Below are positions 24,787-51,340 of a stretch of 64,000 nt of DNA, piece by piece. A model generated the notes under the pieces. It did no database searches. It saw only the letters and a list, made by a program, of their open reading frames with translations, and was not told where the DNA came from. The DNA comes from Clostridiales bacterium UBA1742 (GTDB taxonomy: Bacteria > Bacillota > Clostridia > TANB77 > CAG-508). The position numbers and the translations under genes were made by a program. How positions within the stretch are numbered: the stretch's first letter is position 1; each line of letters opens with the position of its first letter. The DNA lies in NCBI GenBank assembly GCA_002314935.1, contig DCHW01000049.1:30-64029 (forward strand), read 5' to 3'.

Positions 24787-24795
24787 CTAATAACT

Positions 24796-29777: not shown

Positions 29778-29793
29778 ATTATAGGAGTTTTAT

Positions 29794-30282: not shown

Positions 30283-30356
30283 GATGGAAATAGATGAAAA
30301 TATTGTAAAAAAATTTTTCTTATGATATAAGAAAAAACAAAAAGGAGATGTTTTTT

Positions 30357-31518: not shown

Positions 31519-31566
31519 AAAAATGATTTAAAAAATCATAAAAAAAATTGAAGGAATGATTTTATA

Positions 31567-32446: not shown

Positions 32447-32903
32447 TGATATCTGCAAAGAAGTTCTTGTTATATTAGCTTTTTTTGAAAATGATGTTAT
32501 AAAAAAAATACCGAACAAAATATTGATAGAATTAAATAATTTAGCTGCTGAATCTCAAATAGAGTGTTATATTGATCAGGAAAAAGATTTATTAAATCAA
32601 AATATTTCTGAGAGAAGCAAAGATTTAATTGCATTATTGTATTATAGTTATATAGCTAATGAAAGTGAAAAAAATAAAATACTACAAAAATGGGAAACAA
32701 ACGAAATAGAATATTATAAAGAATTAGATAAAAAATATAATTCTAAATCAATGTTTTTTAAAGTGACAGAATTTAATAATACAAACAAAAAAAACGATAT
32801 CAAAAATAATACAAGTATGGAGCTAATAGAACATAAGAAAACTTATTGGACAAAATTTAAAAATTTTATATTTAAATTATTATATAAAAACAAGAATTTA
32901 TAA
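32424..32903 (+). CDS. hypothetical protein
   Basis: ATG 32424 after AAGGGAAAAAA (inside track ORF 32388..32903). Overlaps the end of the preceding gene by 23 nt. Confidence 0.45.
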   Translation: MNQIQEINDICKEVLVILAFFENDVIKKIPNKILIELNNLAAESQIECYIDQEKDLLNQNISERSKDLIALLYYSYIANESEKNKILQKWETNEIEYYKELDKKYNSKSMFFKVTEFNNTNKKNDIKNNTSMELIEHKKTYWTKFKNFIFKLLYKNKNL

Positions 32904-32935
32904 AAAGTTATTTTATATAAGAGTGGGAGAAAAAT

Positions 32936-33244
32936 ATGAATAAAAAAATAAAATTAATTAAAACTATTCTTTTAGGTGTTATAAAAATTTTTGTAATACA
33001 AATATTTTTTTTGATGGCATACATAGATGATTATATGCCTCCTTTGCCACGTATTGAAAAAATATTAATATCACTAACTGGATTAGGTATTTCATTTTTG
33101 TTAGATATTATAGTAAATTATATTACCTATAGGGTTTTGAGAAAAAAAGACATTAATATAAAATTTATGAGTTTTTTAATAATAGATTTAATTATAACAG
33201 GTATATTTTTTGCTTTTTGTATAATTCTTATGAATATGAATTAG
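32936..33244 (+). CDS. small membrane protein
   Basis: 102 aa with three TM helices. RBS GGGAGAAAAA. Confidence 0.45.
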   Translation: MNKKIKLIKTILLGVIKIFVIQIFFLMAYIDDYMPPLPRIEKILISLTGLGISFLLDIIVNYITYRVLRKKDINIKFMSFLIIDLIITGIFFAFCIILMNMN

Positions 33245-33415
33245 AAAAAAAGAAATAAAAGAATATATGGGAGAAAGAATGAAAAATATTTTCCAAACAA
33301 TGAAATAAAATATATTGTATAAAAATTTAAATTTTATAAAAAAAATACTAGATTTTTTTAATATCTATATATAATAGTATTGAATTATAAAATAAATAAA
33401 AAAGGAGAAATAAAA

Positions 33416-36079: not shown

Positions 36080-36142
36080 TTATAATTATAGAAACCAACA
36101 TTCTTTCTTATAATATTTATTATTTATACAATTAGAAATTAA

Positions 36143-36382
36143 ATAGGTAATAAATTAATATACAAAAGTGAAACTCTTTGTAATAACTTTTATTTAGACG
36201 TAGAAATTATAGATGTTGATAAAGATCAAAATGAAGAATTGTTAATTAAAAGTATAGAATCTTCTCATACAAGTATTAATAATAATATTAATAATAAAAT
36301 TTTAAAAGTTCAAGATAACGAAACAAAGATTTATAGTGAGGAAGAATTTTATAAGTTAGACTTCAATGTACAAAACTTGTAG
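36143..36382 (+). pseudogene. 3' gene remnant without a start codon
   Basis: Open frame ...LDVEIIDVDKDQNEELLIKSIESSH...KLDFNVQNL* bounded upstream by a stop at 36140-36142. Followed by the cassette-type terminator at 36418. Confidence 0.3.
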
Positions 36383-36417
36383 AAAAAATTATATATTATT
36401 TCAAATATAGAAATATA

Positions 36418-36446
36418 AGATTAGATTGAAAATCTAGTCTTTTTTA
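36418..36446 (+). terminator. cassette-end terminator (agattag family)
   Basis: agattagat pairs with atctagtct plus a T-run. The same stem sequence recurs at 28321, 40714 and 44933. Confidence 0.55.
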
Positions 36447-36741
36447 TTTTAGGGTAAAATGCATGGCAGAATAGAGGAAGAAGATCATTTTTATATGAAG
36501 AGATAAAAGATAATTAATAGACTAAAAAATGTTAATTAATGAAATTTAAAAGTTTTAGATTTTATTTTTGTTCTTAACTCAAAAACCGAACATTTGTTAT
36601 TTGCAAAATTATTATATAAATTTATAAATAATTTTTATAATCTTATAATTTGATTTTATATTTATTAATTTTTAAGGCATTTTTAAAAATTAGGCATATA
36701 AGACCTGACCCATTAATGCAATCAAAGATTGCAAATGGGTA

Positions 36742-36868
36742 CCCCAAAAGCCACTTTTTGATATAGATGATAAATTTTATAAAAATTGTAGTTTTAATTA
36801 TAAAGAAATGATATAATATTAATAGTGTTTTATTGAGAGGTAATTAATATATCAATAGAAAAACAAAA
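36742..36868 (+). repeat. junction-repeat 3' end (copy A) plus a decayed stub of the 46062 antitoxin cassette
   Basis: ccccaaaagccactttttgatatagatgataaatttt matches the 3' end of the 138-bp repeat. 36774-36868 matches 45988-46083, with the RBS GGGAGG changed to GAGAGG and the ATG changed to ATA. Confidence 0.7.
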
Positions 36869-36925
36869 ATTCTTGAATATATTAATTTACAAATGATATA
36901 TTTAAAAATTGTATGGAGGTATTTT

Positions 36926-37540
36926 ATGAACGATGAATTAAAGAAATTAGTAGGAGATAATGAGAAAATTTTATATGAAGGTAAACCTAACAAAAAATGT
37001 TTTGTTTTTGAAAGCATTTTTAATCCATTATTACCATTTGCTGTACTATGGGCAATAATTGATTTTGGAATTTTGGGAGTATCTATTTTTTCATCTGATG
37101 TTCCAAATGAAATGTTATTTTTTATTATTCCATTTATGTTGTTACATTTAATGCCAGTATGGTTATATTTAGGTGGAATCCTTTTAACATTTAAACGTTA
37201 CAGAAATACATATTATATTGTAACAGACAATGCTATATATGTATCTGGAGGAACATTTAGTAAAACATTTAATTCAAAACCATTTGCAGAATTATCACAT
37301 ATAGATTTGCATAGAGGAATATTTGACCAAATGTTTAATGTTGGAGATATAATATCAACGTCAAGTCAATTTTCAAACAATAATACTAATGCTTCTATTT
37401 CAATAAATAGCATTTCTGACTATATGGCTGTTTATAATTTAGTAAAAAAATTGCAAAAAGATATATATACCGATGTTATGTACCCAAATGATAAAAGACC
37501 TAGTGAAAATCATGGGTATAATACAGAATATAAAGGTTAA
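36926..37540 (+). CDS. membrane protein with bacterial PH (YdbS/YdbT-like) domain
   Basis: ATG 36926 after TGGAGGT. Two TM helices followed by a YYIVTDNAIYVSGG-type bPH segment. Confidence 0.5.
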   Translation: MNDELKKLVGDNEKILYEGKPNKKCFVFESIFNPLLPFAVLWAIIDFGILGVSIFSSDVPNEMLFFIIPFMLLHLMPVWLYLGGILLTFKRYRNTYYIVTDNAIYVSGGTFSKTFNSKPFAELSHIDLHRGIFDQMFNVGDIISTSSQFSNNNTNASISINSISDYMAVYNLVKKLQKDIYTDVMYPNDKRPSENHGYNTEYKG

Positions 37541-37965
37541 ATATTATATTAAAGAAAAATAGTAAATAAAGTTATTTTAAATTTTTATAATATAAAATAA
37601 ATTAAAAATACAAAATTAGAATTTATATAATTTTAGTTTTGTATTTTTTTCTAAAATCGTTTTTATTTGATTTATTAAAATAAATTTTAAAGCTTTAAAT
37701 TTATTTAGTAATAATTATATATGAATTAAAATTTTATATATTTATATAAAGATATGCTGATTAATGATAGTCAGTAACAATTGCCAGTAAATTTTTTATT
37801 TCATAAAAAATTTCCAGACTGCGTTGAATTTCGAAAAATTAAAGTAATATAAGTTGTTGCATGAAGTATGATAAAAGAATATATAAAGCCTTATGTAAGA
37901 GGGCTTTCAAGCACCGAGAGATGACTCCAAAGAGGGGTTCTATTATTTTGCTCCTATTCATTTTT

Positions 37966-38103
37966 GCACAAAACTTTGATAGCAGACACCAGTATTTTAA
38001 AAGATATTCAAATTGTACAAGCCACTAATATCAATGCTTACAAAAATTCTATGTTGCTTTATTACCCCAAAAACCACTTTTTGATATAGATGATAAAAAT
38101 TTT
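37966..38103 (+). repeat. 138-bp cassette junction repeat, copy B
   Basis: gcacaaaactttgatagcagacaccag...ccccaaaaaccactttttgatatagatgataaaaatttt. Preceded by the variant-1 upstream module (about 37878-37965). Confidence 0.85.
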
Positions 38104-38207
38104 TTAAATTTGTAATGAAAATGTAATATTAAAATTATTGTAAAATATAAAAATTAAATATATAATATAGTAAATTTAATAAGTTAAATATTTAGAGGTA
38201 TTAAAAT

Positions 38208-39815
38208 ATGAAAACAAAAACAAGATTTTTAATTATTATGGTTATAACTTTAATTTTAATAATGATATTTAACCTAAAGGTTTATGCAGCTGATGAAGCG
38301 TTTACTTTAGAAGAAACTAATGTAGAGGTTAAGCTAAATGGTACAAAATGGCTATCATATAGTGGAGGAAGCGGAGCAATTACTTGGTCAAGTAGTGATA
38401 CAAGTGTAGCAACAGTAGAAAATGGAACCGTTAGTGGTAAAAAAATAGGAACAACTACTATTACAGCAACTAGAGGAGAAGAAACAGCAATTTGTAATGT
38501 AAATGTCGTGTATTATGATTTAACTATAGGTGGGAATGCTAGTAAAAATGTTTCGAGAGTAAATTTAGTATTAAACGAACATGATACTGAAAATTTATAT
38601 GCAAATGTCAAAGATGATAAATATGAAGCAGTAGAGAATGCTAACGTATCATGGTCAAGTAGTGATACAAGCATCGTAACAGTAGACAATAAAGGAACAA
38701 TAAAAGGATTAAAAGCTGGAACTACAACAGTTACTGCAACAGCAGCTGGAGTTACAGATTCTTGCGAAATAAAAGTAGTAAATGGACCAGCATTTACAAA
38801 CTTTTCTAATGCTAAATATGAATTACTTTTTGATACAGATGTAGACTTAAAAATAACAGGAGTTAAAGGAAATGATAAAAATAACTATTATTATATTATA
38901 ACTTCTGATAAAAATAAACCAACATTATGTAAGACAAATTATGGTGGATTAGATACAGAAACAACTGCCAATACAAAATATTTAATTACTAATACTGAAG
39001 AAGATTATATATATGCTAGGAATTTAGATGAATATGTTGAACGCAATCAAGATTTATATTTATGGATAATTGAAGATGTTAAACTTGAAGAATCATATTC
39101 GACAACTGAAGAAAATACCTATATATCACATTCTACAAAATTTGTAGTTGAAGGAGAAAAATTAAAAAGACCTGAATTACCACAATTAAATTTAATAATG
39201 AAATCATTATCAATATGGGGTGGCGTTGGTCGCAGTGGTGAAGAATCAAGTTATCTTCATTTTAGATTTCCATCAGGTACAGATAATAGAAAATTCAAAT
39301 TAAAAATAGGTAAAATTACAGATGATTCAATATTACAGAAAATACAAAATAACGATTATTCAGGTATAACAGCATTACTATCATATGCAAAAAATAATAT
39401 GGCAGTATATACAGCTGATTTAACAACAACAAGCCAAAACTACTATAGTAAAGAGACAGCATTATTTGATGGACTAAAAACATTAGAAAATAAAGCGTAT
39501 TATTACATATATGTCCAATTTGATGATGAAAATGGTAAATATTATCCAATTGAAGGTGTAACTTTAGGACAAGCTTGGATAAGCAGTTCAAGTGCATATT
39601 GGGATTTATGGGCATATACTTCTGACAATTTTGAATGGAATAATTTATCTAGTACACCTATAGAAACAGGTGAAACAGAGGAACCAGATGATACAAAAGC
39701 CCCTGATAAATTACCTAAAGCTGGTACTGTATATAGTATAGTTTGTGTAATATTAGCTTTAGTTGGTGGCAGTATATTTGTATATCGTAAATATAATAAT
39801 TTAAGAGGAATTTAA
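38208..39815 (+). CDS. cell-wall-anchored surface protein with Big_2 domains (LPxTG-type sorting signal)
   Basis: Signal peptide. Two Big_2 repeats (ITWSSSDTSVATVENGTVSGKKIGTTTITAT). C-terminal LPKAG plus hydrophobic helix plus RKYNNLRG tail. Confidence 0.75.
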   Translation: MKTKTRFLIIMVITLILIMIFNLKVYAADEAFTLEETNVEVKLNGTKWLSYSGGSGAITWSSSDTSVATVENGTVSGKKIGTTTITATRGEETAICNVNVVYYDLTIGGNASKNVSRVNLVLNEHDTENLYANVKDDKYEAVENANVSWSSSDTSIVTVDNKGTIKGLKAGTTTVTATAAGVTDSCEIKVVNGPAFTNFSNAKYELLFDTDVDLKITGVKGNDKNNYYYIITSDKNKPTLCKTNYGGLDTETTANTKYLITNTEEDYIYARNLDEYVERNQDLYLWIIEDVKLEESYSTTEENTYISHSTKFVVEGEKLKRPELPQLNLIMKSLSIWGGVGRSGEESSYLHFRFPSGTDNRKFKLKIGKITDDSILQKIQNNDYSGITALLSYAKNNMAVYTADLTTTSQNYYSKETALFDGLKTLENKAYYYIYVQFDDENGKYYPIEGVTLGQAWISSSSAYWDLWAYTSDNFEWNNLSSTPIETGETEEPDDTKAPDKLPKAGTVYSIVCVILALVGGSIFVYRKYNNLRGI

Positions 39816-39819
39816 AAAT

Positions 39820-39856
39820 AAGAGGAATGTTGTAAAATATATTCCTCTTATTTTTT
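39820..39856 (+). terminator. rho-independent terminator
   Basis: aagaggaat (39820-39828) pairs with attcctctt (39841-49), followed by a T-run. Confidence 0.65.
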
Positions 39857-39926
39857 ATAGGAAGATTGATTTTGAATATAGAGGAATATGCAAAGTAAAA
39901 TAATTATATAATAAGCAAGCTCTTTA

Positions 39927-40064
39927 TGCACAAAACTTTGATAGCAGACACCAGTATTTTTAAAGATATTCACATTGTACAAGCCACTAATATAAATACT
40001 TACAAAAATTCCATATTGCTTTATTACCCCAAAAGCCACTTTTAGATATATATGATAAAAATTT
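39927..40064 (+). repeat. 138-bp cassette junction repeat, copy C
   Basis: Same length as and collinear with copies B, E and F. Lacks the upstream module. Confidence 0.85.
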
Positions 40065-40141
40065 TATAATATTATATAAAACTATTAACGCACCAGAAAA
40101 ATATATATGTGGATATTTTAAATAAATGTTTTTCAAAATAA

Positions 40142-40170
40142 TGGAAATCATATAAAATATATGGTATACT
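40142..40170 (+). promoter_or_regulatory. candidate extended -10 promoter of the TA cassette
   Basis: TGgTATACT at 40162-40170, with a weak -35 TGGAAA at 40142-40147. An identical element lies upstream of the second copy (about 43685). Confidence 0.35.
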
Positions 40171-40202
40171 AATTATAATAATTTTAAAGGAGATTTTATA
40201 TT

Positions 40203-40379
40203 ATGAGTGATAAACAATTAATTTTAAATACAGTTCAAAGTATTGAAGATACAAAAAGTTATGAAGAAATTCTATATACTTTATTTATGCAATTAGAAAT
40301 TCAAAAGGGTATTACTGATATGGAAAATGGTAATGTAAAAACAAGTGATGAATTAAAGGAGATTATTAATAAATGGTAA
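40203..40379 (+). CDS. type II antitoxin (ParD/RelB-like), 58 aa
   Basis: ATG after AAAGGAG. Its stop overlaps the toxin start (ATGGTAA). Below the track cutoff. Confidence 0.6.
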   Translation: MSDKQLILNTVQSIEDTKSYEEILYTLFMQLEIQKGITDMENGNVKTSDELKEIINKW

Positions 40380-40684
40380 GATGGACTGATAATTCAATTT
40401 CTAATATTACAGATTTTATTGATTCTGCTAAAGAAGGAACAGAAAATACTGCAAAAGCATATATGAATAAATTAATAGACTATGTAGATATACTAAATAC
40501 AATGCCAGAATTGGGCAAGGTAGTTGAAAATTATATATTTAAATATAAAATTAGACAGATTGTTTATAAAAGCCACAAAGTTATATATCATAAAAAAGAT
40601 AATGATATAATTATTTTAACTGTTTTACATTCAAAAATGGATTACAATGCAGCATTAAACCGATTAAAGAAAATTATAAAATAA
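40373..40684 (+). CDS. type II toxin, RelE/ParE family
   Basis: 103 aa. IRQIVYKSHKVIYHKKDNDIIILTVLHSKMD is a typical ParE/RelE C-terminal fold signature. Confidence 0.7.
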   Translation: MVRWTDNSISNITDFIDSAKEGTENTAKAYMNKLIDYVDILNTMPELGKVVENYIFKYKIRQIVYKSHKVIYHKKDNDIIILTVLHSKMDYNAALNRLKKIIK

Positions 40685-40713
40685 GAAAGCAATAATAAAA
40701 GAATAATCCATTA

Positions 40714-40750
40714 AAAGATTAGGTTGAAATATATCTAATCTTTTATTTTA
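40714..40750 (+). terminator. cassette-end terminator (agattag family)
   Basis: aaagattag (40714-22) pairs with ctaatcttt (40735-43) plus a T-rich tail. Confidence 0.55.
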
Positions 40751-40954
40751 TGCCAAAATTAAGCAGAGTAGGGGAAAGAGCTCTATTTTCAACGGATTAA
40801 TAAAAAAATATAAAATCTATAATTAAAAAGTTAAAGTTCTTGTAAAATTATTTTTAAAAAATATAATGAAAATTTGAAAATAAAAAGATGAATTTATTAA
40901 TATGAATTTTGTGATTTTTTATATTTAGAATTTGAATAATTTTTGAAAAAATTT

Positions 40955-41091
40955 TGTAGGGGCGATTTTAATCGCCCGAAATTTAAAACGAATAATAAAA
41001 TTGTTATTAATAATATAAAATAACCAGCTTATAAAAGTCTGAAATATATGTAGAATAGGATATTACACGGGCGATTAAAATCGCCCCTACA
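40955..41091. repeat. MITE-like element with perfect 24-bp terminal inverted repeats
   Basis: tgtaggggcgattttaatcgcccg (40955-40978) and its exact reverse complement (41068-41091) flank 89 bp. Each arm is itself a hairpin (gggcgat/atcgccc). Confidence 0.7.
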
Positions 41092-41098
41092 TCTTTTT

Positions 41099-41125
41099 GT
41101 ACAAAACTTTGATAGGGGGACACAA
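41099..41125 (+). repeat. junction repeat, diverged copy D (core only)
   Basis: gtacaaaactttgatag matches the repeat core. The downstream about 120 bp is a different sequence of similar length. Confidence 0.55.
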
Positions 41126-41330
41126 GGCTTTTTTTGACTTTTCTGATAAAGAAACATTAATTTATCAGTATTTTGCGGCTACGAAAAGGCTTCCTTGTGA
41201 CCAATAATGAAAATGCTTTTTGACATAAATATAAAGTAATAAATGTTATATATATATATTAGAATATTTTGTTGAATAATAATATTTTATATGATATATT
41301 TAATAAAAATATAATTTTGGAGGATAAATA

Positions 41331-42668
41331 ATGAAAAATAAATTTATTGAAATTATAACAACTATATTAATTTGTTTATTGATACTATTATTAGATTACT
41401 TATTTTATTGGTATAAATTACCTGTTTTGCTATTAATTTTTCCACTAATAATTGCATCCTCTTACTTAATATCATTATTTATTTTCAAAAAAAGCAATAT
41501 TGAAAAAAGAAAAGAAATAGGAAAATTAACAAGACTTATAATTGTGATAGTTGCATGTATTGGAACTTTACCGTTTATTTATGATTTTACTTTGAATGAC
41601 TATACTTTTTTTGGAATTCAAGATATTCTTAGACCACTTTATTTTTTAACATATATTTTCTTGTCAATTACAATGTTAGTTTTGTCTTTTTTGTTTTATT
41701 TTTTATATAAAAATAAAACAAAAAAATTAAAAAATAATGAAATACCATTTGATATTGATGAACAAAGAGAAAAGAATGTTATAAAGACAATAAGCATATA
41801 TTTATTAATATTAATAATTTGTATTACGTTATATTTATGTAAATTACCTGGACTATTGTTTGTTTTTCCAACAATTTTAGCAATTATTTATTTAATATCA
41901 TTATTAATTTTTAGGGAAACAAATATAGCCCAGAGGGAAAAAGTTGGATCTTTAACAAGACCTCTAGCGGTAGTATTCGCATCATGTATAACTTGTTTTC
42001 TTTCTTTAGCTCTGGATATTAATTGGTTAAATTCAGATAAACACATAAAATTATTAGAGATTGATATAGCAAGTTCTATTGTATGCTATTTTTCATATAA
42101 AAATAAAACAAAAAAATTAAAAAATAATGAAATGTCACATGATAAAAAAGTAATTATTGAAAAGAAAAGTGATGAAATACTATTTGATAAAAAAATTAGT
42201 GTCGAAAAGGAAAAAAATAAAATAAAAATTGAAAATAATAGGTATAAAGGAAAAAAGAATAAATATATAATTAGTGATTTTTTATTTATAATTATATCAG
42301 CACTAATAATTTTATATTTTATTTTCATTATTGTTCCAATTGGTGAACAGGGAAATTTTTTCAATGAAGAAATCAATCCAAGAGTTGATTTGGTTACAAA
42401 ATATAAAATGATGGTAAACCCAATTTTTTGGGGATATTTAATTTATTGTAACCTAAAAATTTGTAATGTTAATAAATATATGAAATTTTTTGTATACCCT
42501 ATAACTGCAATAACATTTTTTATATCATTAATTTTTTTCTTATCAACATATGGAGGAAGTGCAATATGGTTGCTATTCTTTATTTTACCTATTGCGCCGT
42601 TAATTTTTTATTTAAATATTAAATTAATAAAAAAAATGAAAAACATATTAAAAATAAATAATACATAA
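41331..42668 (+). CDS. polytopic membrane protein with internal duplication
   Basis: 445 aa. Two copies of KLP.LL..FP.I.A..YLISL.IF...NI..R...G.LTR and of YKNKTKKLKNNE. The 38-nt DNA repeat at about 41703 and about 42092 is near-identical. Confidence 0.55.
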   Translation: MKNKFIEIITTILICLLILLLDYLFYWYKLPVLLLIFPLIIASSYLISLFIFKKSNIEKRKEIGKLTRLIIVIVACIGTLPFIYDFTLNDYTFFGIQDILRPLYFLTYIFLSITMLVLSFLFYFLYKNKTKKLKNNEIPFDIDEQREKNVIKTISIYLLILIICITLYLCKLPGLLFVFPTILAIIYLISLLIFRETNIAQREKVGSLTRPLAVVFASCITCFLSLALDINWLNSDKHIKLLEIDIASSIVCYFSYKNKTKKLKNNEMSHDKKVIIEKKSDEILFDKKISVEKEKNKIKIENNRYKGKKNKYIISDFLFIIISALIILYFIFIIVPIGEQGNFFNEEINPRVDLVTKYKMMVNPIFWGYLIYCNLKICNVNKYMKFFVYPITAITFFISLIFFLSTYGGSAIWLLFFILPIAPLIFYLNIKLIKKMKNILKINNT

Positions 42669-43450
42669 TAGTTAATTATACAGGTGAAAAGATGAATTAG
42701 GTTTAAACATAGATTTATATAAAAAATATAATAACTCTTGTGAAATTTTAAAAAAACAATAGAGTAGGGGAAAGAACCCTATTTTCAACAGGTTAATAAA
42801 AAATATAAAATCTATAATTATTTTGTATAATTTTATAAATTTTTTTATAATCATACAATTTAATTTTATAATTATTCATCTCAAAATCGTTTTTTAAGCG
42901 TTTTAAAATATAAATCCATAAAGTTATTATTTAATTACTTAAAATCGATTTTAAAGCTATATTTTTAGAATGATAATTTATATATTAGTTAAAATTTCAT
43001 ATAGTTTTATATAGATATGCTGATTATGTGCAATTTTCAGTATATCTGTAAAATGCCTAAAAATAGCCAAAAAAACGACGCACGAGAATCGATTTTAAGC
43101 CGCTTTTAAAAATTAGCCATATAGTTTGTTATCTAAAATATGAGGCTATTTTAAGGCGAGGCTCTAAAATCGATTTTAAGGCGTTTTTTTATTTAAGTAA
43201 TATAAGTTGTTGTTTAAAATATAAGAATTAATATATGAATATAAATATTATGAATAAAAATTATAATACTGAACAATAAAAATAAAAAATAGCCACATAC
43301 TGAAATATACTGAAAATGATTAAAATGCATATATAATGGCTTAATAATAACTATATAATAGATACTAAAGGAAGCTCATACACTAGTAGTATCAAGACTT
43401 GAAGGGGATACCTGAAAGAGGTATTCTTTATTTTATCCCTACACCTTTTT

Positions 43451-43588
43451 GCACAAAACTTTGATAGCAGACACCAGTATTTTTAAAGATATTCAAATTG
43501 TACAAGCCACTAATATCAATGCTTACAAAAATTCTATGTTGCTTTATTACCCCAAAAGCCACTTTTGGATATAGATGATAAAAATTTT
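43451..43588 (+). repeat. 138-bp cassette junction repeat, copy E
   Basis: Preceded by the variant-2 upstream module. 43168-43464 matches 48647-48943 over 297 bp. Confidence 0.85.
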
Positions 43589-43725
43589 ATAATATTATAT
43601 AAAGCTATTGACACACAAGAAAAATATATATGTGGATATTTTAAATAAATGTTTTTCAAAATAATGGAAATCATATAAAATATATGTTATACTAATTATA
43701 ATAATTTTAAAGGAGATTTTATAAT

Positions 43726-43902
43726 ATGAGTGATAAACAATTAATTTTAAATACTGTTCAAAGTATTGAAGATACAAAAAGTTATGAAGAAATTCTATAT
43801 ACATTATTTATGCAATTAGAAATTCAAAAGGGTATTACAGATATGGAAAATGGTAATGTAAAAACAAGTGAGGAATTAAAGGAGATTATTAATAAATGGT
43901 AA
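43726..43902 (+). CDS. type II antitoxin (duplicate of 40203..40379)
   Basis: Same length and near-identical sequence to the first copy. Overlaps the toxin start. Confidence 0.6.
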   Translation: MSDKQLILNTVQSIEDTKSYEEILYTLFMQLEIQKGITDMENGNVKTSEELKEIINKW

Positions 43903-44207
43903 GATGGACTGATAATTCAATTTCTAATATTACAGATTTTATAGATTCTTCTAAAGAAGGAACAGAAAATACAGCAAAAGCATATATGAATAAATTAATA
44001 GACTATGTAGATATACTAAATACAATGCCAGAATTGGGCAAAGTAGTTGAAAATAATATATTTAAATATGAAATTAGACAGATTGTTTATAAAAGCCACA
44101 AAGTTATATATCATAAAAAAGATAATGATATAATTATTTTAACTGTTTTACATTCAAAAATGGATTACAATGCAGCATTAAAAAGATTAAAGAATATTAT
44201 AAAATAA
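43896..44207 (+). CDS. type II toxin, RelE/ParE family (duplicate of 40373..40684)
   Basis: 103 aa. Five substitutions relative to the first copy (A18S, Y54N, K58E, N96K, K100N). Confidence 0.7.
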   Translation: MVRWTDNSISNITDFIDSSKEGTENTAKAYMNKLIDYVDILNTMPELGKVVENNIFKYEIRQIVYKSHKVIYHKKDNDIIILTVLHSKMDYNAALKRLKNIIK

Positions 44208-44297
44208 GAAAACAATATATATACTTTATTCGCTGTATGTCTATACTATTATAAAAAATTGCATGACAAATAGTAAGTTATAGAGGAGATTATAAAT

Positions 44298-44915
44298 ATG
44301 ATTAAAAGATATTTTAGTGGATTAAAATTTGGATTATTATTGCAGATAGCAGTTGGACCTATGTGTTTAATGGTATTTAATACAGCAAAGAATGTTGGAT
44401 TTTTAGTCGCTTTATCATTAGTATTAGCAATTGCATTAGTAGATGCATTTTATATAACATTAGCAAGTATAGGAGTAAGCAAACTATTAGAAAAAGAAAA
44501 GATTAAAAAGATATTTAAGATAATAGGTTCTATTGTACTTATGGTATTTGGAATTAATATTATATTAAATGTATTTGGAACAAATATTATTCCAGGATTA
44601 AACTTAAGACCGACATCAGCTAATATTTTTATGCAAGGCTTAATATTAACATTATCAAATCCAATAACAATAGTATTTTGGGGAAGTGTTTTAACTACTA
44701 AAATTATAGATGATAAATTAAAAAAGAAAGAATTAGTAATATTTTCAGTAGGCTTAGTATCTGCAACATTACTATTTTTAACAGCAGTTGCAATATTAGG
44801 AACAATACTATCAAGCTTTATACCTAATAATATTTCAAATATACTAAATGTTATTGTAGGAGCATTAATAATATTCTTTGGAATTAAGATGTTAATAAAA
44901 AAAGATAAAAACTAA
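44298..44915 (+). CDS. LysE/RhtB family amino-acid exporter
   Basis: 205 aa with six TM helices. LysE-type N-terminal GLLLQIAVGPMCLMVF and central NPITIVFWGSV segments. Confidence 0.65.
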   Translation: MIKRYFSGLKFGLLLQIAVGPMCLMVFNTAKNVGFLVALSLVLAIALVDAFYITLASIGVSKLLEKEKIKKIFKIIGSIVLMVFGINIILNVFGTNIIPGLNLRPTSANIFMQGLILTLSNPITIVFWGSVLTTKIIDDKLKKKELVIFSVGLVSATLLFLTAVAILGTILSSFIPNNISNILNVIVGALIIFFGIKMLIKKDKN

Positions 44916-44932
44916 AAATTACAATTTATTTT

Positions 44933-44962
44933 AAAGATTAGATTTGATAGCTAGTCTTTTTT
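44933..44962 (+). terminator. cassette-end terminator (agattag family)
   Basis: aaagattag (44933-41) pairs with ctagtcttt (44951-59) plus a T-run. Confidence 0.55.
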
Positions 44963-45786
44963 AATTTTTGATAAAAATGGCGAAGTAGGGGGAAGAGCTC
45001 TATTTTCAAGAATTATAACTTTTTATTAAATTTTATATTTAGAAAAAAAGAAGAACTAGGTAGTAAAATATTTTGTGCAATGTTATAAAATTATTTTCAG
45101 AAAAAAATTTTTGAATTAAAAATAATAATTAATAAAATATTTCTTAAAATTTAATTTTTGAATTTTAAATTTTGTTTGGTTAAAAATTCTTAAACCGAAC
45201 ATTTGATTATTATAAATTAATTTAAAAATTTTAATTATGATTTTAGATTTATAATTATATTTATAAAGTCTGAAAATCAATTTTAAGCAATTAAAATTAT
45301 TAACTAATTAAATTATTCATTTAAAACTTTATAAATTGATTTTGAAGCTTTTAAACTTATAATATGTAATTTGAATTTATAGATTCTAATTAGATTTATA
45401 CAATTATTACTATATATAAAAATCTCTGAAATTAGCTAAAATAATGGCTTACGAGAATCGATTTTAAGCCGTTTTTAAAAAATTAGGCATATAGTTTGTT
45501 GCGTAGCGTAAGCGAAGCCTGAAACATTTTTGAGCATTTTGTGATAAAAATGTTGCTGGTCAGATTAATATAAGAAATTTTAAAATTATGCCAGTAAATA
45601 ATTTCCAGAGTTCGCAATTAAAAATTGCTCACCAGAATCGATTTTAAGACGTTTAAATATTAAAATAATATAAGTTGTTGCATTAAATATAATAACAGAA
45701 TATATAAAGCCTTATATAAGAGGGCTTTCAAGCACCGAGAGAGGACTCCAAAGAGGGGTTCTATTATTTTGCTCCTATTCCTTTTT

Positions 45787-45924
45787 GCACAAAACTTTGA
45801 TAGCAGACACCAGTATTTTTAAAGATAGTCAAATTGTACAAGTCACTAATATCAGTACTTACAGGAACTTTGTATCGTTTCATTACCCCAAAAGCCACTT
45901 TTAGATATATATGATAAAAATTTT
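45787..45924 (+). repeat. 138-bp cassette junction repeat, copy F (most diverged full-length copy)
   Basis: Same 138-bp length as B, C and E, with substitutions only. Preceded by the variant-1 module (about 45698-45786). Confidence 0.85.
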
Positions 45925-46061
45925 ATAATATTATATAAAGCTATTGACACACAAGAAAAATATATCTGTGGATATTTTTTTGAGTAATTTTATAAAAATT
46001 GTAGTTTTAATTATAAAGAAATGATATAATATTAATAGTGTTTTATTGGGAGGTAATTAAT

Positions 46062-46304
46062 ATGTCAATAGAAAAACAAAAAATATTAAGTGAAATAGAA
46101 ACATTACCAGAAGAACTTTCAAAACAAGTTATTGATTTTATTGAATATTTGAAATTTTCACAAATATCTAATGAAGCTCCAGATAGTGTTACAATAAAAA
46201 GTAAAAAAGATTTAAAAGAAAAAATCCAAAAAGGAATTGATGATATAGAAGCTGGTAGAGTTTATACGGTAGAAGAAGTATTTGAAAAACTGGATAATAT
46301 ATAA
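46062..46304 (+). CDS. type II antitoxin (DUF2281/RelB-like)
   Basis: ATG 46062 after GGGAGG. ILSEIETLPEELSKQVIDFIEYLKF N-terminal segment. 80 aa. Confidence 0.6.
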   Translation: MSIEKQKILSEIETLPEELSKQVIDFIEYLKFSQISNEAPDSVTIKSKKDLKEKIQKGIDDIEAGRVYTVEEVFEKLDNI

Positions 46305-46323
46305 ATCCTTAGGAGTTGATAGA

Positions 46324-46647
46324 ATGAAGAAATATAAAGTTACAGTTTCTGAAACTGCTAAGCAGGATTTGGAAAATATCATTTCATATCTTAGATATGA
46401 TTTATCAGAAGATATTATTGCAGATAAATACAAGATTTTATTTAAGCAAAAATTAATGACATTAGAAGATATTGCTGAAAGTATGCCTATTATAAATGAA
46501 GAACTAATTGGACATAAAAATATAAGAAAAATAAATGCTAAAAACTATATTATTTTCTATAAGATAGATGAACATACAAATACAGCTTACATTATCAGAG
46601 TTGGTCATGCATTTATGGATTGGGAAAGATATTTGAAAGATATATAA
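46324..46647 (+). CDS. type II toxin, RelE/ParE family
   Basis: ATG 46324 after TAGGAG. 107 aa. IRKINAKNYIIFYKIDEHTNTAYIIRVGH signature. Confidence 0.65.
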   Translation: MKKYKVTVSETAKQDLENIISYLRYDLSEDIIADKYKILFKQKLMTLEDIAESMPIINEELIGHKNIRKINAKNYIIFYKIDEHTNTAYIIRVGHAFMDWERYLKDI

Positions 46648-47090
46648 TCATAGTAATATTAGAAAATAATAGAAACTATATGGAAGATATGATATACTAC
46701 AAAAAGAAAATAATTGGAGGATGATATATGTTTGATGTAAATGAATATTTGAAAAATTTTTATAGTTGTGTATTATATACATAATGTGGACTGACAAACA
46801 AATATAAAAAAACACCACATTTAGCTTTGCCGAGCTGTGTGGTGTTTCTTGAATTTATTTAGGTAACACACATTGTCTGTGGCTACTTACTTTCTATCTT
46901 TATTATATACACTTTTTTATATTTGTCAAATTTTTTGAAAAAACTCATAGCATACACAATAATAATATTGCAATTTACATAAAGATATGATAATATATAG
47001 CAGCAAAAATTTATTAGCAAAATTCCTTATTTTTGCAACTGGAGGTCAGACAGTTACTATAAAAATATATTTTAAAGGAGTGAAATTTAA

Positions 47091-47546
47091 ATGAAGAAAT
47101 TTAAAGATGTATCATTCAACAAATCACGGTTCATTTCTATATTTATTGGTATATTAATTTTTTTATTAGCTATAAGTATTTTGTGTATTAAGCTTAAATA
47201 TTCTTTTTATGTATCAATTCCCTTAGGAATAATAGTTGGAGCAGTAACATATTCAATTATTTTTTCTATTTTTGATGGACCTACTAAGAATGTATACAGA
47301 AAAAGATTAAGAGTCAGCTTAGTATATCAAAATTCAGCTACTGAAGTTAAGTGCAAATCAATAGAATTAAATCCATACAATACGAGATATGATGCGTTTG
47401 GCAATTGCAGATTTTACGCAATGTTGTTGACAGACAACAAGGTCTGGATTTCTATATGTGCTCAGAAAGAAAATGGAAACTTTATTCCACGAGCATATGA
47501 AATTGTAGATTTATCTAAGTTTTATCAATATTTTTCTTTCATTTAA
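47091..47546 (+). CDS. membrane protein, hypothetical; contains an in-frame CGG
   Basis: ATG after AAAGGAG. Two TM helices. The CGG at 47127-47129 must be read in frame (KS-R-FISIF), because a +1 shift there hits a stop after 10 codons. Confidence 0.5.
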   Translation: MKKFKDVSFNKSRFISIFIGILIFLLAISILCIKLKYSFYVSIPLGIIVGAVTYSIIFSIFDGPTKNVYRKRLRVSLVYQNSATEVKCKSIELNPYNTRYDAFGNCRFYAMLLTDNKVWISICAQKENGNFIPRAYEIVDLSKFYQYFSFI

Positions 47547-47552
47547 GCTAAA

Positions 47553-47577
47553 GAGAGTCAGAAATGACTCTTTTTTA
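47553..47577 (+). terminator. rho-independent terminator
   Basis: agagtca (47554-60) pairs with tgactct (47565-71) plus T6. Confidence 0.65.
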
Positions 47578-47718
47578 GTTTTGTGATGTTATTTACTTGA
47601 AATTGAAGATAATAGTCCAGTTATGGATATAAATATATTACCAGAAGATTTAAGAGAAAAAGTAATAACAAGATATAAAGAAAACATTTACGAATATTTA
47701 AAAAAAGGTGAAAAATAA

Positions 47719-48012
47719 ATGAAAATATATATTGTAAGACATGGACAAGTTGATTTAATATTAAGATCAATAGAATTATATAGCTATAATCTTGAATTTA
47801 TGCTTGATGCAGATGAGTCAAATGAAGAAAAGAAGCGAGAAAAACTTGCAAAATTAAAATATACCTATGAGCAAATATTATCATGTCTTGCTGACCAAGT
47901 TAATGGAAAGGCTGAAGAATATGAAAAGAGGAGAACAACAGGTAGAAACATGCTTGGAGATAACATTATAGATATAATACCATCTAAAAAAGAAAAATTT
48001 CAAGTTGGTTAA
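47719..48012 (+). pseudogene. chimeric remnant: histidine-phosphatase N-terminus (MKIYIVRHGQ) fused to unrelated sequence
   Basis: Only the first about 12 codons resemble the RHG phosphatase motif. The remaining 85 codons are low-complexity and charged. Confidence 0.35.
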
Positions 48013-48929
48013 AAGCAGTAGAATAGGGGGGAACAGAGGAATTTTTATAGTTTATAATTAATTAATAAAATTTTTTAAAAATTATATTAAAAAATAATTT
48101 TTAAGTTGAAAAATAAAAATTATAAAATTTAAAATATAAAATAAATAATAAAACTTTAAAATTTAATTTTGAAAATTTTTTAAATTTTTTATATAATAAT
48201 TATTATTTTTATATTTTAAACCTCTCAAAATCGTTTTTAAGGCATTTTTATAATTAACTAATAAAAAATTACTCATTTGAATTATTATTATAATACTATA
48301 ACTTATATAAAATTTTAATTTATCAATACTTTTATAAATTAATTATAATTAAATTAGTAATAATTACTATTTTTGATGAATTATATAAATTAATGTAATT
48401 ATTGCAGCAACTTGGTTTTAGCTCAAAAATTGCCAAAATAATGACGCACGAGAATCGATTTTAAGCCGTTTTTAAAAATTAGCCATATAGTTTGTTGCGT
48501 AGCGTAAGCGAAGCCTGAAACATTTTTGAGCATTTTGCGATAAAAATGTTGCTGGTCAGATTAATATAAGAAATTTTATATAAAAATTTATACAGATATA
48601 AAATTATATTAATCAGTTATAAAAATTGATTTAAATGGATTGTCAGAATCGTTTTTAAGGCGTTTTTTTATTTAAGTAATATAAGTTGTTGTTTAAAATA
48701 TAAGATTTAATATATGAATATAAATATTATGAATAAAAATTATAATACTGAACAATATAAATAAAAAATAGCCACATACTGAAATATACTGAAAATTATT
48801 AAAATGCATATATAATAGCTTAATAATAACTATATAATAGATGCTAAAGAAAGCTCATACGCTAGTAGTATCAAGACTTGAAGGGGATACCTGAAAGGGG
48901 TATTCTTTATTTTATCCCTACACCTTTTT

Positions 48930-48951
48930 GCACAAAACTTTGATTTTGTGC
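48930..48951. other. perfect 8-6-8 palindrome closing the cassette array (candidate recombinase core site)
   Basis: GCACAAAA-CTTTGA-TTTTGTGC. The left arm plus spacer equal the first 14 nt of every junction repeat. The right arm starts a 17-mer (ttttgtgcaatgttata) also present at 45071-45087. Confidence 0.6.
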
Positions 48952-49136
48952 AATGTTATATATTCCTTTTTTGATACTTTTCCATATCTACTTCTGCCTC
49001 TCATCTACTATCCTTTGACCTGTTAAAGTGAATTCAATTGTAATTTACTATTTAATTAATTATTTATTTTATGTTTTATTTTTCAAATTAGATTTCGCCA
49101 TGATTTTTTATTTTAAAAATTATTTTTTTTAAGTAA

Positions 49137-49198: not shown

Positions 49199-51004
49199 TT
49201 ATTCTAAAATTTTCTTTATCATCAATTTGTTTTTTCCATTTGTAAATTCATATTCTATTTTATCAGATATTTTTTTTACAATACCAATACCTAATCCACC
49301 ATATTTTCTATCATTTACAGATATATTTTTGTTTATTTCTTTTGCATTTAAAGGGTTATATGGTATTCCCCTATCTTCAAAAATAATATTTAAAGAAAGA
49401 GGATTTTTCGTTAAAAATGCGCTAACCTCTACCTTTCCTTCCGTTTTATTATATGCATATTTAGCTATGTTACCAAATATTTCATCAATTATTATATTAA
49501 TTTCGGCTCTTGTTTTAGTTTCAACTTTACACTCAGCTATTAATTTATTAATAAAATTTGTTACATCTTCAATTTTATCTGTTTTTGCTTCAAATGACCC
49601 ATTAATACTTTTATTAGATATAACATCTAATCCGTTATATTTTAAGCAAACCATAGTAATATCATCAAACTGTTCAGAATTGTTGCTAAAACTATCTATA
49701 TCTTTTTTTACATCTTTACAAATATCTTCTATTGATTTATTTGACTCATTTAATAATAAATTTTTTAATCTCTCTTCTCCATATTGCTCTTTTGATAAAT
49801 TTATTGTTTCTGTTATTCCATCAGTATATAAAAATAACATATCTCCCTTTTCTAGTTTAATATTAAATGAATTATATTTTGAATCTTTTTTTCCTGCTAA
49901 AATAAATCCAGATCTATTTTTTAAAAAGCAAATTTCGTTATTAGATTTTTTTAATATAGGATAGTTATGCCCCGCATTAATAAATTCAACTTTTCCTGTA
50001 GAAATTTCAAGAACTCCTATCCATGATGTAACAAACATACTTTCTTTATTTCCTTCAAAAAGTTGTGTATTTGTTTTTTCTATTGCTTCTTCAAAACTTA
50101 ATCCTAATTGTAAATTTGTTTTAATAATTGTTTTTGAAATAACCATAAATAAAGCCGAAGGAACTCCTTTTCCAGATACATCAGAAATCAAAAATGCAAA
50201 ATGATCTTGATCTATAAAATAGAAGTCATAAAAGTCGCCTCCAACTTGTTTAGCTGGAATCATATTAGCAAATATTTCAAATTCATTTCTTCCTGGGAAA
50301 TATGGCAAAATAGCCGGAAGCATAGACTTTTGAATATTTGTTGCTGTTTTTAATTCTATTTCAATTGCGTCTTTATTTTTTTCAATATTTTTATATTTAT
50401 CAATCATATCTGTTGTAAATATCATTAAGCCAAATGCTAATGCATTTGAAAATAAAAATGATGGGGCTACATTAAGTATTAAATTCCAACTTGTGCTTAA
50501 ATTTTCAGTAAACCACATGTATATAAATACTACGCTTAAATGTAAACATTCCATTAATATTGCAATAAAAAATGCAAAAACTCCTCTACTTTTTTTTGAT
50601 TCAAATGGTTTAAATAATAAACCACATAACATACCAATTAAAACAGTAGAAATTGAGCATGGAATTGTTGTTCCTAAAGGTAAATTATTTATTCCTTGAA
50701 TTAAGCGATGCATTCCTGCTATTAATCCAGCAATAATTCCACCTATTGGACCAGCTAAACATCCAGCCATCATTGGTCCTACATCTCTTATTGCAATTAC
50801 AGCTCCATTTGAATTTGTATAACCGTTAATAGTTGCATAAATACCAAACAAACCACCTATAATGCCTAAGTTAATTGCTACTCTTAAATTGCTTTTACCT
50901 TCCCCTTTTCTTAAAATTTTTTTAGTTCCTTGAAGAATAATAGCAATAAGGTTAATAACAGCTATAGTACCAATCATTGAAATAATTTCATTATAATTAT
51001 TCAT
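49199..51004 (-). CDS. 5TM sensor / PP2C (SpoIIE-type) phosphatase / HATPase (RsbW-like) fusion protein
   Basis: 601 aa. N-terminal LytS-type 5TM domain. PP2C block GGDFYDF...ISDVSGKGVPSALFM. C-terminal IDEIFGNIAKYAY...GGLGIGIVKK ATP-binding fold. Confidence 0.75.
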   Translation of the reverse strand: MNNYNEIISMIGTIAVINLIAIILQGTKKILRKGEGKSNLRVAINLGIIGGLFGIYATINGYTNSNGAVIAIRDVGPMMAGCLAGPIGGIIAGLIAGMHRLIQGINNLPLGTTIPCSISTVLIGMLCGLLFKPFESKKSRGVFAFFIAILMECLHLSVVFIYMWFTENLSTSWNLILNVAPSFLFSNALAFGLMIFTTDMIDKYKNIEKNKDAIEIELKTATNIQKSMLPAILPYFPGRNEFEIFANMIPAKQVGGDFYDFYFIDQDHFAFLISDVSGKGVPSALFMVISKTIIKTNLQLGLSFEEAIEKTNTQLFEGNKESMFVTSWIGVLEISTGKVEFINAGHNYPILKKSNNEICFLKNRSGFILAGKKDSKYNSFNIKLEKGDMLFLYTDGITETINLSKEQYGEERLKNLLLNESNKSIEDICKDVKKDIDSFSNNSEQFDDITMVCLKYNGLDVISNKSINGSFEAKTDKIEDVTNFINKLIAECKVETKTRAEINIIIDEIFGNIAKYAYNKTEGKVEVSAFLTKNPLSLNIIFEDRGIPYNPLNAKEINKNISVNDRKYGGLGIGIVKKISDKIEYEFTNGKNKLMIKKILE

Positions 51005-51015
51005 AGTAACTCCTT

Positions 51016-51318
51016 TTATTCGATAGTAAGCATTTCATTAAAACCTGTAATTTCAAATACTTCCATAACAATTTCATTTACATTTATTAACTTCATAGAA
51101 CCACCTTTAGAATCCATTAGTTTTTGAGATTTTAATAGTACTCTAAGTCCTGCGGAAGATGTATATTGTATTTCTTTCATATTTATTATTAATTTTTTTA
51201 CATTTAAATTTTCTAAATTGTCTATTTCTTTTTCAAAGTCTGTAGATGTAACTGTATCCAATCTACCAGAAAGTACTATTTCTACTTCATCATTAATAAT
51301 ATTTTTTTCAATTTTCAT
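51016..51318 (-). CDS. STAS-domain anti-sigma-factor antagonist
   Basis: 100 aa. The SpoIIAA/RsbV-like segment QYTSSAGLRVLL carries the phosphorylatable Ser. Confidence 0.8.
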   Translation of the reverse strand: MKIEKNIINDEVEIVLSGRLDTVTSTDFEKEIDNLENLNVKKLIINMKEIQYTSSAGLRVLLKSQKLMDSKGGSMKLINVNEIVMEVFEITGFNEMLTIE

Positions 51319-51340
51319 TATTCTTCCCTCTTTCTTTTTA

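Follow-up and report, generated by a model that had tools for sequence, protein, structure and literature searches.

The window analysed here is a stretch of 64,000 nucleotides from Clostridiales bacterium UBA1742 (assembly GCA_002314935.1, contig DCHW01000049.1, positions 30 to 64,029 of the forward strand) with a base composition of about 25% G+C. Between 36.1 and 48.9 kb all genes lie on the plus strand and are spaced by long repeated non-coding stretches. A repeat of about 140 nt recurs there without indels at 37963, 39925, 43448 and 45784 (copies B, C, E and F). Partial copies are found at 41096 and 48927 (D and G, the first 18 nt only) and at 36740 (A, the last ~48 nt only). A first-pass annotation of this DNA had taken the repeat for the conserved C-terminal end of a minus-strand gene, about 45 codons with a stop codon and a hairpin, whose 3' end is swapped by each integrating element. 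The junction repeat is not the remnant of a gene, but the feature underneath it is real. We think it likely that the region is a tandem array of small cassettes without an integrase of their own, inserted at a 26-bp site of a tyrosine recombinase, and that the repeat is the attL-type seam. The array is best read as resembling the integrative mobile elements exploiting Xer (IMEX) or an integron, placed at a non-canonical dif site.

All junctions start with TTGCACAAAA-CTTTGA, and C and D are each one base off. To the right of CTTTGA follows TAGCAGACAC in B, C, E and F, TAGGGGGACA in D and TTTTGTGCAA in G. Since TTTTGTGCAA is the exact inverted repeat of the first ten bases, site G (TTGCACAAAA-CTTTGA-TTTTGTGCAA, 48928-48953, plus strand) is a perfect 10-6-10 palindrome, and its asymmetric centre gives it the layout of a tyrosine-recombinase core site. 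The other five junctions, likewise on the plus strand, are hybrids that join the left arm and the centre to a foreign right arm. These are B (37964-37989), C (39926-39951, ATGCACAAAA-CTTTGA followed by TAGCAGACAC), D (41097-41122, TTGTACAAAA-CTTTGA followed by TAGGGGGACA, the left end of a different cassette family), E (43449-43474) and F (45785-45810). In E, the left arm and centre are intact (43449-43464) and the right arm is now TAGCAGACAC; B and F are built in the same way. Site G forms the right end of the array and is the candidate dif. The cumulative GC skew of the window reaches its maximum at about 48.9 kb, which is the position of G, and the genes are found on the plus strand to the left of G and on the minus strand to its right. 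The stem of the palindrome is A+T-rich and there is no T-run.

The junctions delimit a series of cassettes on the plus strand. The leftmost one is decayed (36100-37979), carries a bPH_2 protein (36893-37540) and has no recognisable left core site. Cassette B (37980-39941) encodes a Big_2 surface protein (38208-39815), cassette C (39942-41112) an antitoxin (40203-40379) and a ParE toxin (40373-40684), and cassette D (41113-43464) a membrane protein of 445 aa (41331-42668) that is followed by a non-coding module. In cassette E (43465-45800), an antitoxin (43726-43902), ParE (43896-44207) and LysE (44298-44915) precede the non-coding module M2. Cassette F (45801-48943) contains an antitoxin (46038-46304), ParE (46282-46647) and two unknown proteins (47091-47546 and 47719-48012), and ends with a non-coding module as well. 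The cargo in the window therefore comprises three ParE toxin-antitoxin pairs, LysE, the Big_2 and bPH_2 proteins and unknown membrane proteins. A Pfam search detected no recombinase among all ten open reading frames (ORFs) of the window array, nor among 10-11 cassette proteins sampled elsewhere. The 445-aa membrane protein, which has no Pfam match, shows an internal duplication (41685-41776 versus 42075-42166, 78% DNA identity).

The repeat proper forms the left end of a cassette family and occupies 43465-43595 in copy E, on the plus strand. The other copies lie at 37980-38110, 39942-40072 and 45801-45931, and only the 3' part is present at 36740-36787. The repeat is conserved because the cassettes B, C, E and F form one family. 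A promoter-like T(G/A)GATA-16-TATAAT lies upstream of the genes in its 3' third, the part that copy A retains as well. In copy E this element reads TGGATA-16-TATAAT on the plus strand (43566-43593), as it does at 40043-40070 and 45902-45929; the assignment is a consensus match only. Terminator-like hairpins with a T-run on the plus strand were found at 43403-43429, 37923-37939, 45742-45762 and 48882-48908, with ten sites in all against 2.1 expected. The hairpin at 43403-43429 is the right end of the preceding cassette, and it is the one that the first-pass annotation had described as following the stop codon of its gene. The hairpins atacct/aggtat and aaagcc/ggcttt that it had reported are indeed present. 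Their T-runs, however, are on the plus strand, so that they are terminator-like for the plus-strand cassette genes and not terminators of a minus-strand gene.

The distribution of the site was followed with a scan for the 18-mer TTTGCACAAAACTTTGAT in one genome per species. The scanned genomes were mostly draft metagenome-assembled genomes (MAGs), seen as 8-kb blocks, and the evidence of this survey is comparative sequence throughout. All counts from it refer to the matches listed. At least 118 loci were obtained. Uncultured gut Clostridia (CAG:354, CAG:452 and CAG:492-type MAGs) account for about 100, and the remaining ones were chance matches in unrelated phyla. The perfect site, in which the 18-mer continues with TTTG(T/C)GCAA, was present in at least 66 cases. 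At least 40 were hybrids with about 25 unrelated arms, for example AATACAAACC, ACTGGGCTAT, AATGGTTCGT and GCCACGACAG. The arms of the core are conserved in 64 species. The search pattern did not include the right arm or the three bases GTT that follow it, and both are 80-99% conserved, as is a TCCTA about 10 nt to the left of the left arm. Wherever both kinds of site occur, in the window and at the loci L035, L050, L059 and L076, the hybrids are on the left and the perfect site is on the right.

The elements in the other species are 1.2-3.3 kb long and have all their genes on the plus strand. They carry, among others, ToxN, an AAA_14/DUF4143 ATPase, a cytidine deaminase, a RibD_C protein and a Schlafen-AlbA_2 protein. 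Between species, the homology sets in precisely at the site. From the core rightward, L014 and L049 share 96% identity over 1.7 kb, and their left flanks are unrelated. L046 and L049 show the same identity of 96% over 3.6 kb.

Published criteria for the prediction of dif are a palindrome, one copy per chromosome and a position near the skew switch (PMC3025954). The 26-mer has inverted arms of the ~11-bp type with a spacing of 6-8 bp. Among the matches listed, it was single-copy in 66 of the 93 Clostridia assemblies, and two perfect sites were found in none of the 93. Of the 28 loci with at least 1.2 kb on both sides, whose flanks were examined up to 3 kb, all 28 had a positive GC skew to the left of the site (mean +0.20) and a negative one to its right (mean -0.21). 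By our own calculation, which takes the four combinations of signs as equally likely, the chance of this result is (1/4)^28. The genome also encodes recombinases of the Xer family, the 326-aa protein and the canonical XerD described below. The 26-mer does not fit the classical XerCD dif consensus, and the atypical sites difSL and difH fail likewise. Five of the 22 arm positions fall outside the degenerate proteobacterial dif consensus. No classical dif was found beyond chance in the window or in 740 kb of loci around the sites. A search through 8 million full-text papers did not find the sequence of the site, and as far as could be found the 26-mer is undescribed so far. On the comparison of these genomes we lean towards the view that it is the dif of the clade.

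A second kind of junction accompanies the hybrids. In these reciprocal hybrids the right arm TTTTGTGCAA(T/A)GTT is perfect, the left arm is unrelated and the centre is variable (AAAATA, TTTTGA, TTTGCA and others). They are located 470-1040 nt to the left of a left half-site and mark 37 modules at about 35 loci, one of them at 45071 in the window. The window copy (45055-45087, plus strand) consists of ACTAGGTAGT-AAAATA and the perfect right arm TTTTGTGCAATGTTATA, and starts module M2. An array thus opens with a left arm and its centre; cargo follows, then a right arm, module M and the next left arm with its centre, and this series repeats until the perfect site closes it. CTTTGA is always kept at the left junctions and not at the reciprocal ones, which places the inferred crossover at or next to the boundary of centre and right arm.

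Module M2 extends from the right half-site to the left half-site (45071-45800, plus strand); its top block lies within 45428-45499 and continues to about 45530. A shorter and less certain M is found at ~43024-43464, with the block from 43059, and an M-like region at ~48100-48943, with the block from 48425, both on the plus strand. Most of the 37 aligned modules carry the block AAAAAAGCGACGCACGAGAATCGATTTTAAGCCGTTTTTA...GGCATATAGTTTGTTG in near-invariant form. In about 35 species, as well as in a phage attP, about 230-480 nt separate it from the left arm on its right. RNAalifold found no consensus pairs in 27 M blocks nor in 69 left flanks. Since the M block showed no RNA structure, its conservation is at the level of the primary sequence, as expected of protein-binding DNA. 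A hairpin that we had proposed by hand in the M block was rejected, as it pairs in only 39% of the cells and a slid register does better. Likewise rejected was an outer stem GGTAGGA/TCCTAYC around the terminator, which showed no covariation (7.46 with its own upstream partner, 7.45 with those of others). By analogy to cer and psi, M may serve the recombination site as an accessory region; of all steps in the model, this one is the weakest. Module M had no match in 72,556 plasmids and none in the phage records of GenBank.

Two to three copies of a unit are present in each non-coding module. It consists of the perfect 12-nt palindrome AAAATCGATTTT, followed by AAG(C/G)CGTTTTT and TATA(A)GTT(T)GTTG. 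In the window these units are found at 43059-43205, 45271-45673 and 48225-48684 and also at 36660 and 37640, and they are near-invariant over about 35 species. One copy is located about 25 nt from the start codon of the recombinase in L001. They look like operator-plus-promoter units or binding sites of an accessory protein. A further block, AAAACGAACATTTGTT, occurs at ~36580 and ~45190 and is conserved across species, and in several cassettes (~36455, 40765, 44975 and 48010) the last gene and its terminator are followed by a motif of approximately GCAGAGTAGGGGAAAGAGCTCTATTTTCAA.

A Xer-family tyrosine recombinase of 326 aa is encoded on the minus strand at 24796-25776, 23 kb to the left of the perfect site, and is the candidate partner of the site. 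It scored best on the XerC, XerD and XerA models, with all scores below the cutoffs, and its nearest solved structures are XerA and XerD. The catalytic residues R, K, HxxR, H and Y can be read in the sequence. On the integron-integrase models it reached 108.8 bits against a cutoff of 265 (TIGR02249) and 72 against 435 (NF011946). The canonical XerD of 293 aa (TIGR02225, 347 bits against a cutoff of 329.6) is encoded beside spoIIM on the plus strand at 20250-21131, 28 kb to the left of the site. Orthologues of the 326-aa enzyme with 56-80% amino acid identity are found in the same orientation 1.7-2.3 kb to the left of the first site in L001, L086, L097 and L045, where the L045 copy looks frameshifted. 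A small upstream ORF is common to L001, L086 and L097, and L086 also shows guaA homology. Each species has different DNA between the recombinase gene and the site, and no conserved attI-like site was found beside the gene of the 326-aa recombinase.

Other lineages have tandem pairs of tyrosine recombinases that are located 1-3 kb from the perfect site and point at it (L066, L069, L099, L033 and L051, also L003, L023 and L091). The enzymes belong to two families with 47-79% identity across species and 33-42% identity to the 326-aa enzyme. These pairs could form a two-subunit Xer specific for the site in those lineages. In addition, two IMG/VR contigs (L135 and L136) contain genuine hybrid-type sites. 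At 6853-8960, the 39-kb contig L135 (UViG_3300045988_165745) carries in a row an integrase of 331 aa, an ORF of 93 aa, an M-like block, a hybrid site that joins the left arm and centre to a foreign arm, and a repressor. Large structural-type proteins precede the integrase and an exonuclease follows the repressor, which was read by eye as XRE-type. In its gene order this is the classical int-attP-repressor module of a temperate phage-like element. In L136 an integrase-like gene lies near the site. The sites on the two contigs indicate that the site is used by phages with their own Xer-like integrase as well as by cassettes without one. Candidates for the enzyme that acts on the cassettes are the 326-aa protein, possibly together with XerD, or phage-borne relatives.

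We propose the following mechanism for the growth of the array. A circular cassette would contain a site in which the left arm and the centre are intact and an unrelated arm takes the place of the right one. Its left arm would be preceded by a terminator-like hairpin and TCCTAYYYCTT, and some cassettes would bring a module M of ~0.5-1 kb. A Xer-family recombinase would exchange the strands near the boundary of centre and right arm. The resident left half-site would then be fused to the left end of the cassette, which creates the seam that had been translated in the first-pass annotation. The left half-site of the cassette would be set against the chromosomal right arm, and a perfect site would be rebuilt for the next insertion. 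What each element replaces would be the left half-site and its upstream terminator, plus the accessory module in some cassettes. Since the perfect site is rebuilt at the right end, the newest cassette would be the one nearest to 48.9 kb. The hybrid sites, which have no right arm, are presumably poor substrates, so that cassettes would be retained and the array would grow at the end proximal to the terminus. We tentatively extend this to the clade, at slightly less than an even chance of being right as a whole. It would resolve its chromosome dimers at a so far undescribed, perfectly palindromic dif with an accessory module. Like an integron, this dif would double as a capture platform, for integrase-less cassettes of 1-3 kb with toxin-antitoxin, defence and transport genes and for temperate phages with Xer-like integrases; it would be rebuilt with each insertion and let arrays grow at the terminus.

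Several observations weigh against this interpretation. It was drawn from sequence comparison, and no recombination event was observed. The site has 11 mismatches in 28 positions to the dif of E. coli and 14 in 28 to that of B. subtilis. The genome encodes a canonical XerD, and the classical partner site of this enzyme was not found in the window or in the 740 kb of loci. Hybrid sites alone were seen in 27 of the assemblies, and the count of one perfect site per genome is a lower-bound check on the listed matches in mostly draft MAGs. The arms of the elements bear no likeness to the right arm, which leaves the synapsis by the recombinase without explanation. Junction A at 36740 has no core site, and no recognisable core sites were found between the recombinase gene and the array (25.8-36.1 kb). 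The cassette family of the window, defined by the arm AGCAGACACC and the 140 nt, was found nowhere else in the metagenome collection, and its mobility is therefore inferred from other cassette families. The right flank of the window showed no synteny with its closest relative L001, so there is no clean pair of an empty and an occupied site for the window array. Finally, copy F has 10 changes in the 27-nt 3' arm of the minimum free energy (MFE) hairpin predicted from copy E. These changes read as uncompensated in the 5' arm, and a folded single-strand site is thus not supported. An attC-like or CTX-like folded site in the repeat was rejected on this ground and because the fold is insignificant.

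On the minus strand, the open frames reported by the first-pass annotation were confirmed at 43428-43562 (E), 45764-45898 (F) and 39848-40039 (C), and the quoted peptides match. Copy B, which it had left untranslated, contains two in-frame stops. The stop codon is at the same position in E and F, whereas copy C reads through there. The shared stop codon lies inside ATTTTRYYCCTA, a motif that is kept beside the recombination site in about 100 species among the matches listed. As had been noted, there is neither an ATG nor a ribosome binding site (RBS) at the 5' edge of the frame; the sole start codon is a GTG at 43562. The plus strand of the repeat is open as well, with 41-aa ORFs that start with TTG (43449-43574 and 37964-38089). 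Within the frame, E and F differ at 13 positions, 10 of which are inside one 27-nt stretch. Many of the differences between E and F had been described as conservative or silent. When B, C and F were compared with copy E, we counted 3 synonymous and 21 non-synonymous codon differences. The variable columns of the four copies are distributed 8/8/5 over codon positions 1, 2 and 3, so a third-position bias is not seen. The substitutions in the four copies thus carry no coding signature, at a power that is low for n=4. A metagenome scan with TTTGATAGCAGACACCAG for more copies of the 140-nt family returned 13 chance matches only, and the codon test therefore rests on four copies.

A gene tail swapped by the elements would account for the frame being open in C, E and F and for the stop being placed alike in two kinds of upstream module. 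The parent gene that such a tail calls for did not appear, since protein searches gave no full-length homologue of the 46-47-aa frame. A word-indexed search of 5.8 billion proteins found no relative. An exhaustive search of 1.84 billion cluster representatives with phmmer (HMMER) gave two matches only, both of them artefacts from tandem-repeat proteins that sum up many weak matches of 19-29 residues. Moreover, 382 of 2000 dinucleotide shuffles of the same 168 nt (19%) had a frame that stays open for 46 codons or more. Openness of both strands over the repeat was rarer than one open frame (58/2000 shuffles, 2.9%) and is mildly unusual; the slightly lower A+T content of the repeat, and not coding, is the probable cause. 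Also considered and rejected was a small ORF that crosses the empty site on the minus strand; it is open in some species and has a stop in the window and in L043. The direction of the terminator-like hairpins, which belong to plus-strand transcripts, and the geometry of the insertion argue in the same way. The translated 140 nt are the left end of the element itself, on the opposite side of the proposed crossover from the part that is replaced. What survives of the claim is repeated integration at one site with each element bringing a replacement part; the target is not the 3' end of a gene, and ARAGORN found no tRNA or tmRNA as an integration target. With no homologue, no codon pattern and stops in copy B, we give the tail of a lost protein gene next to no credence. 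The first-pass annotation had itself named a structured RNA on the plus strand as an alternative. A leader, a small RNA or an RNA antitoxin encoded in the repeat or in M could explain why the repeat stands 5' of every cassette gene and why the M block is extremely conserved and has the appearance of a promoter with a transcript start. The ToxN cargo elsewhere also implies RNA antitoxins close by. Rfam, however, contained no family that matched at the gathering score nor at E up to 5, and the folding of the repeat on either strand was not significant against shuffles (z = -0.77 and -0.05). The lack of consensus pairs in the left flanks and M blocks, the poor pairing and covariation of the two stems and the uncompensated changes in copy F speak against it as well, and we regard it as very improbable. 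The 140-nt repeat encodes neither a protein nor a structured RNA.

The array might also have arisen without any site-specific mobility, by local tandem duplication and homologous recombination, with the palindrome serving as a terminator or operator. The toxin-antitoxin genes of C and E are 95% identical, the non-coding modules are mosaics of one another and the palindrome was also scored as terminator-like in the terminator scan. Duplication within one genome does not account for a 26-mer that occurs in at least 66 species with unrelated cargo and with about 25 unrelated arms abutting the same base, for inter-species homology that breaks exactly at the site, or for a phage-like contig with the site beside its integrase. 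A palindrome with an A+T-rich stem and no T-run that is always located at the skew switch is not expected either, and this origin is hardly credible. An insertion of the IS200/IS605 type next to TTGAT was discarded, as there is no tnpA or tnpB and the target is the full recombinase core site. More weight, although it still appears unlikely to us, is due to an integron-like platform that is not a dif. Here, the 326-aa enzyme or the tandem pairs would be the integrase of the cassettes, the 26-mer and M would be attI-like, and dimers would be resolved elsewhere by XerD. This would agree with the presence of a canonical XerD and a site unlike the classical dif, with a recombinase gene that is linked to a co-oriented cassette array and has variable genes beside it in five species, with cargo that resembles chromosomal integrons in its toxin-antitoxin pairs, and with phage-type relatives that use the site with their own integrase. 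A cassette platform needs neither the skew switch in 28 of 28 loci nor the absence of duplicated perfect sites among the listed matches, and no classical dif was found in the window or in 740 kb around the sites. In addition, the enzyme falls far below the cutoff of the integron-integrase model, the sites are plain double-strand cores and not attC-type hairpins, and no conserved site is present beside the recombinase gene. The readings were weighed individually, and their probabilities were not set to sum to one.

The preferred reading, cassettes inserted at a Xer-type site, has parallels in several known systems. In IMEX of the TLC-phi type, one arm is intact, the centre matches and the other arm is defective, and dif is rebuilt on one side. 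Like the TLC-phi-type elements in the dif1 arrays of Vibrio cholerae, the cassettes have no integrase of their own, mimic dif in their site and are stacked in tandem by order of arrival. IMEX are described in general as elements that exploit the Xer system of the host (PMC5357621, PMC4246890). The arrangement of hybrid sites on the left and a perfect site on the right agrees with IMEX in the window and in L035, L050, L059 and L076, on the condition that the site is dif. The lack of an own integrase holds for the cassettes, whereas the larger phage-like users of the site encode one. The occurrence of the same element in different contexts was seen for other cassette families and not for that of the window, which was found nowhere else. 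The differences are that the window contains gene cassettes of 1-3 kb without phage or replication genes, that the host site is not a classical XerCD dif, that some cassettes contain module M and that the centres of the reciprocal junctions are unrelated.

In the single-recombinase Xer systems the recombinase gene lies near its dif (PMC5357621). XerS/difSL and XerH/difH resemble the present case in that a non-canonical dif with inner AAAA...TTTT arms is linked to the recombinase gene (PMC5357621). For comparison with the 26-mer, the arms of difSL are TTTCCGAAAA and TTTTCTTGAAA and the left arm of difH is AGTTATGAAAA. A close precedent is XerL/LME-1 of Legionella, where an atypical dif was revealed by a mobile element that mimics it (PMC9765430). 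In contrast to these atypical systems, the 326-aa enzyme is closest to XerA, XerD and XerC and not to XerS or XerH. Its gene lies 1.7-23 kb from the site and not adjacent to it, a canonical XerD is also present, and tandem pairs are found elsewhere. Chromosomal integrons share the small co-oriented cassettes with many toxin-antitoxin pairs and unknown proteins, the boundaries at recombination sites, and the tyrosine recombinase gene on the opposite strand at the far end of the array. The defining features of an integron, an IntI-type integrase and attC sites, were looked for and not found. No IntI-specific signature and no attC hairpins are present here, each cassette has its own promoter-like and terminator-like elements, and insertion takes place distal to the recombinase gene, at the replication terminus. 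The plasmid sites cer and psi combine a Xer core with a long conserved non-coding region on one side (PMC5357621), and the pdif modules of Acinetobacter bracket genes, including toxin-antitoxin pairs, by Xer-type sites (PMC7399989). Unlike these, the array is chromosomal and located at the terminus, and the accessory role of M is putative. The pdif sites alternate in orientation, whereas the sites in the window are all direct. New with respect to all the systems compared are the sequence of the site, the tiny cassettes that contain cargo only, the module M in some of them and the host clade.

If the 26-mer is the dif, the dimer-resolution site would be defined for about 100 species of uncultured gut Clostridia that have no visible classical dif at the terminus, and draft genomes of the clade would gain a marker for the replication terminus. 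If the reading of the array is correct, recombination of the Xer type can sustain an integron-like economy of very small integrase-less cassettes outside the Proteobacteria. It would also account for where toxin-antitoxin and defence genes collect in these small genomes. Module M is a candidate for the binding of accessory factors that govern directionality. Annotators should take short open frames that span a junction of this kind as artefacts and call no genes from them.

Some further observations were made in the window. At junction A (36700-36760), a hairpin CCCATT-AATGCAATCAAAGATTGCA-AATGGG directly adjoins the 3' part of the repeat (TACCCCAAAAGCC...). The hairpin contains in its loop region ATCAAAG, which is the reverse complement of CTTTGAT of the core, and it looks like a shortened and inverted core. 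Between the gene of the 326-aa recombinase and the recognisable array lies a stretch of low G+C content (20-22%, 24000-34000) with genes for a Fic-domain protein, a GNAT acetyltransferase, an RCC1-repeat protein and several small unknown proteins. These genes may be older cassettes with decayed junctions; no core-like sites were found there. DNA polymerase I is split into two ORFs (8973-10817 and 10975-11595) that are about 157 nt apart. The first contains the 5'-3' exonuclease, the 3'-5' exonuclease and the positions 2-104 of the DNA_pol_A profile, and the second contains the positions 176-381. The split could be a frameshift, a pseudogene, a sequencing error or an intervening sequence. Directly to the right of the site, the stretch 49199-53140 encodes a SpoIIE-type PP2C phosphatase fused to a 5TM-LYT sensor and a HATPase_c_2 kinase-like domain, together with a STAS protein and a 599-aa MatE protein with a long C-terminal extension. 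These genes form an unusual partner-switching module.

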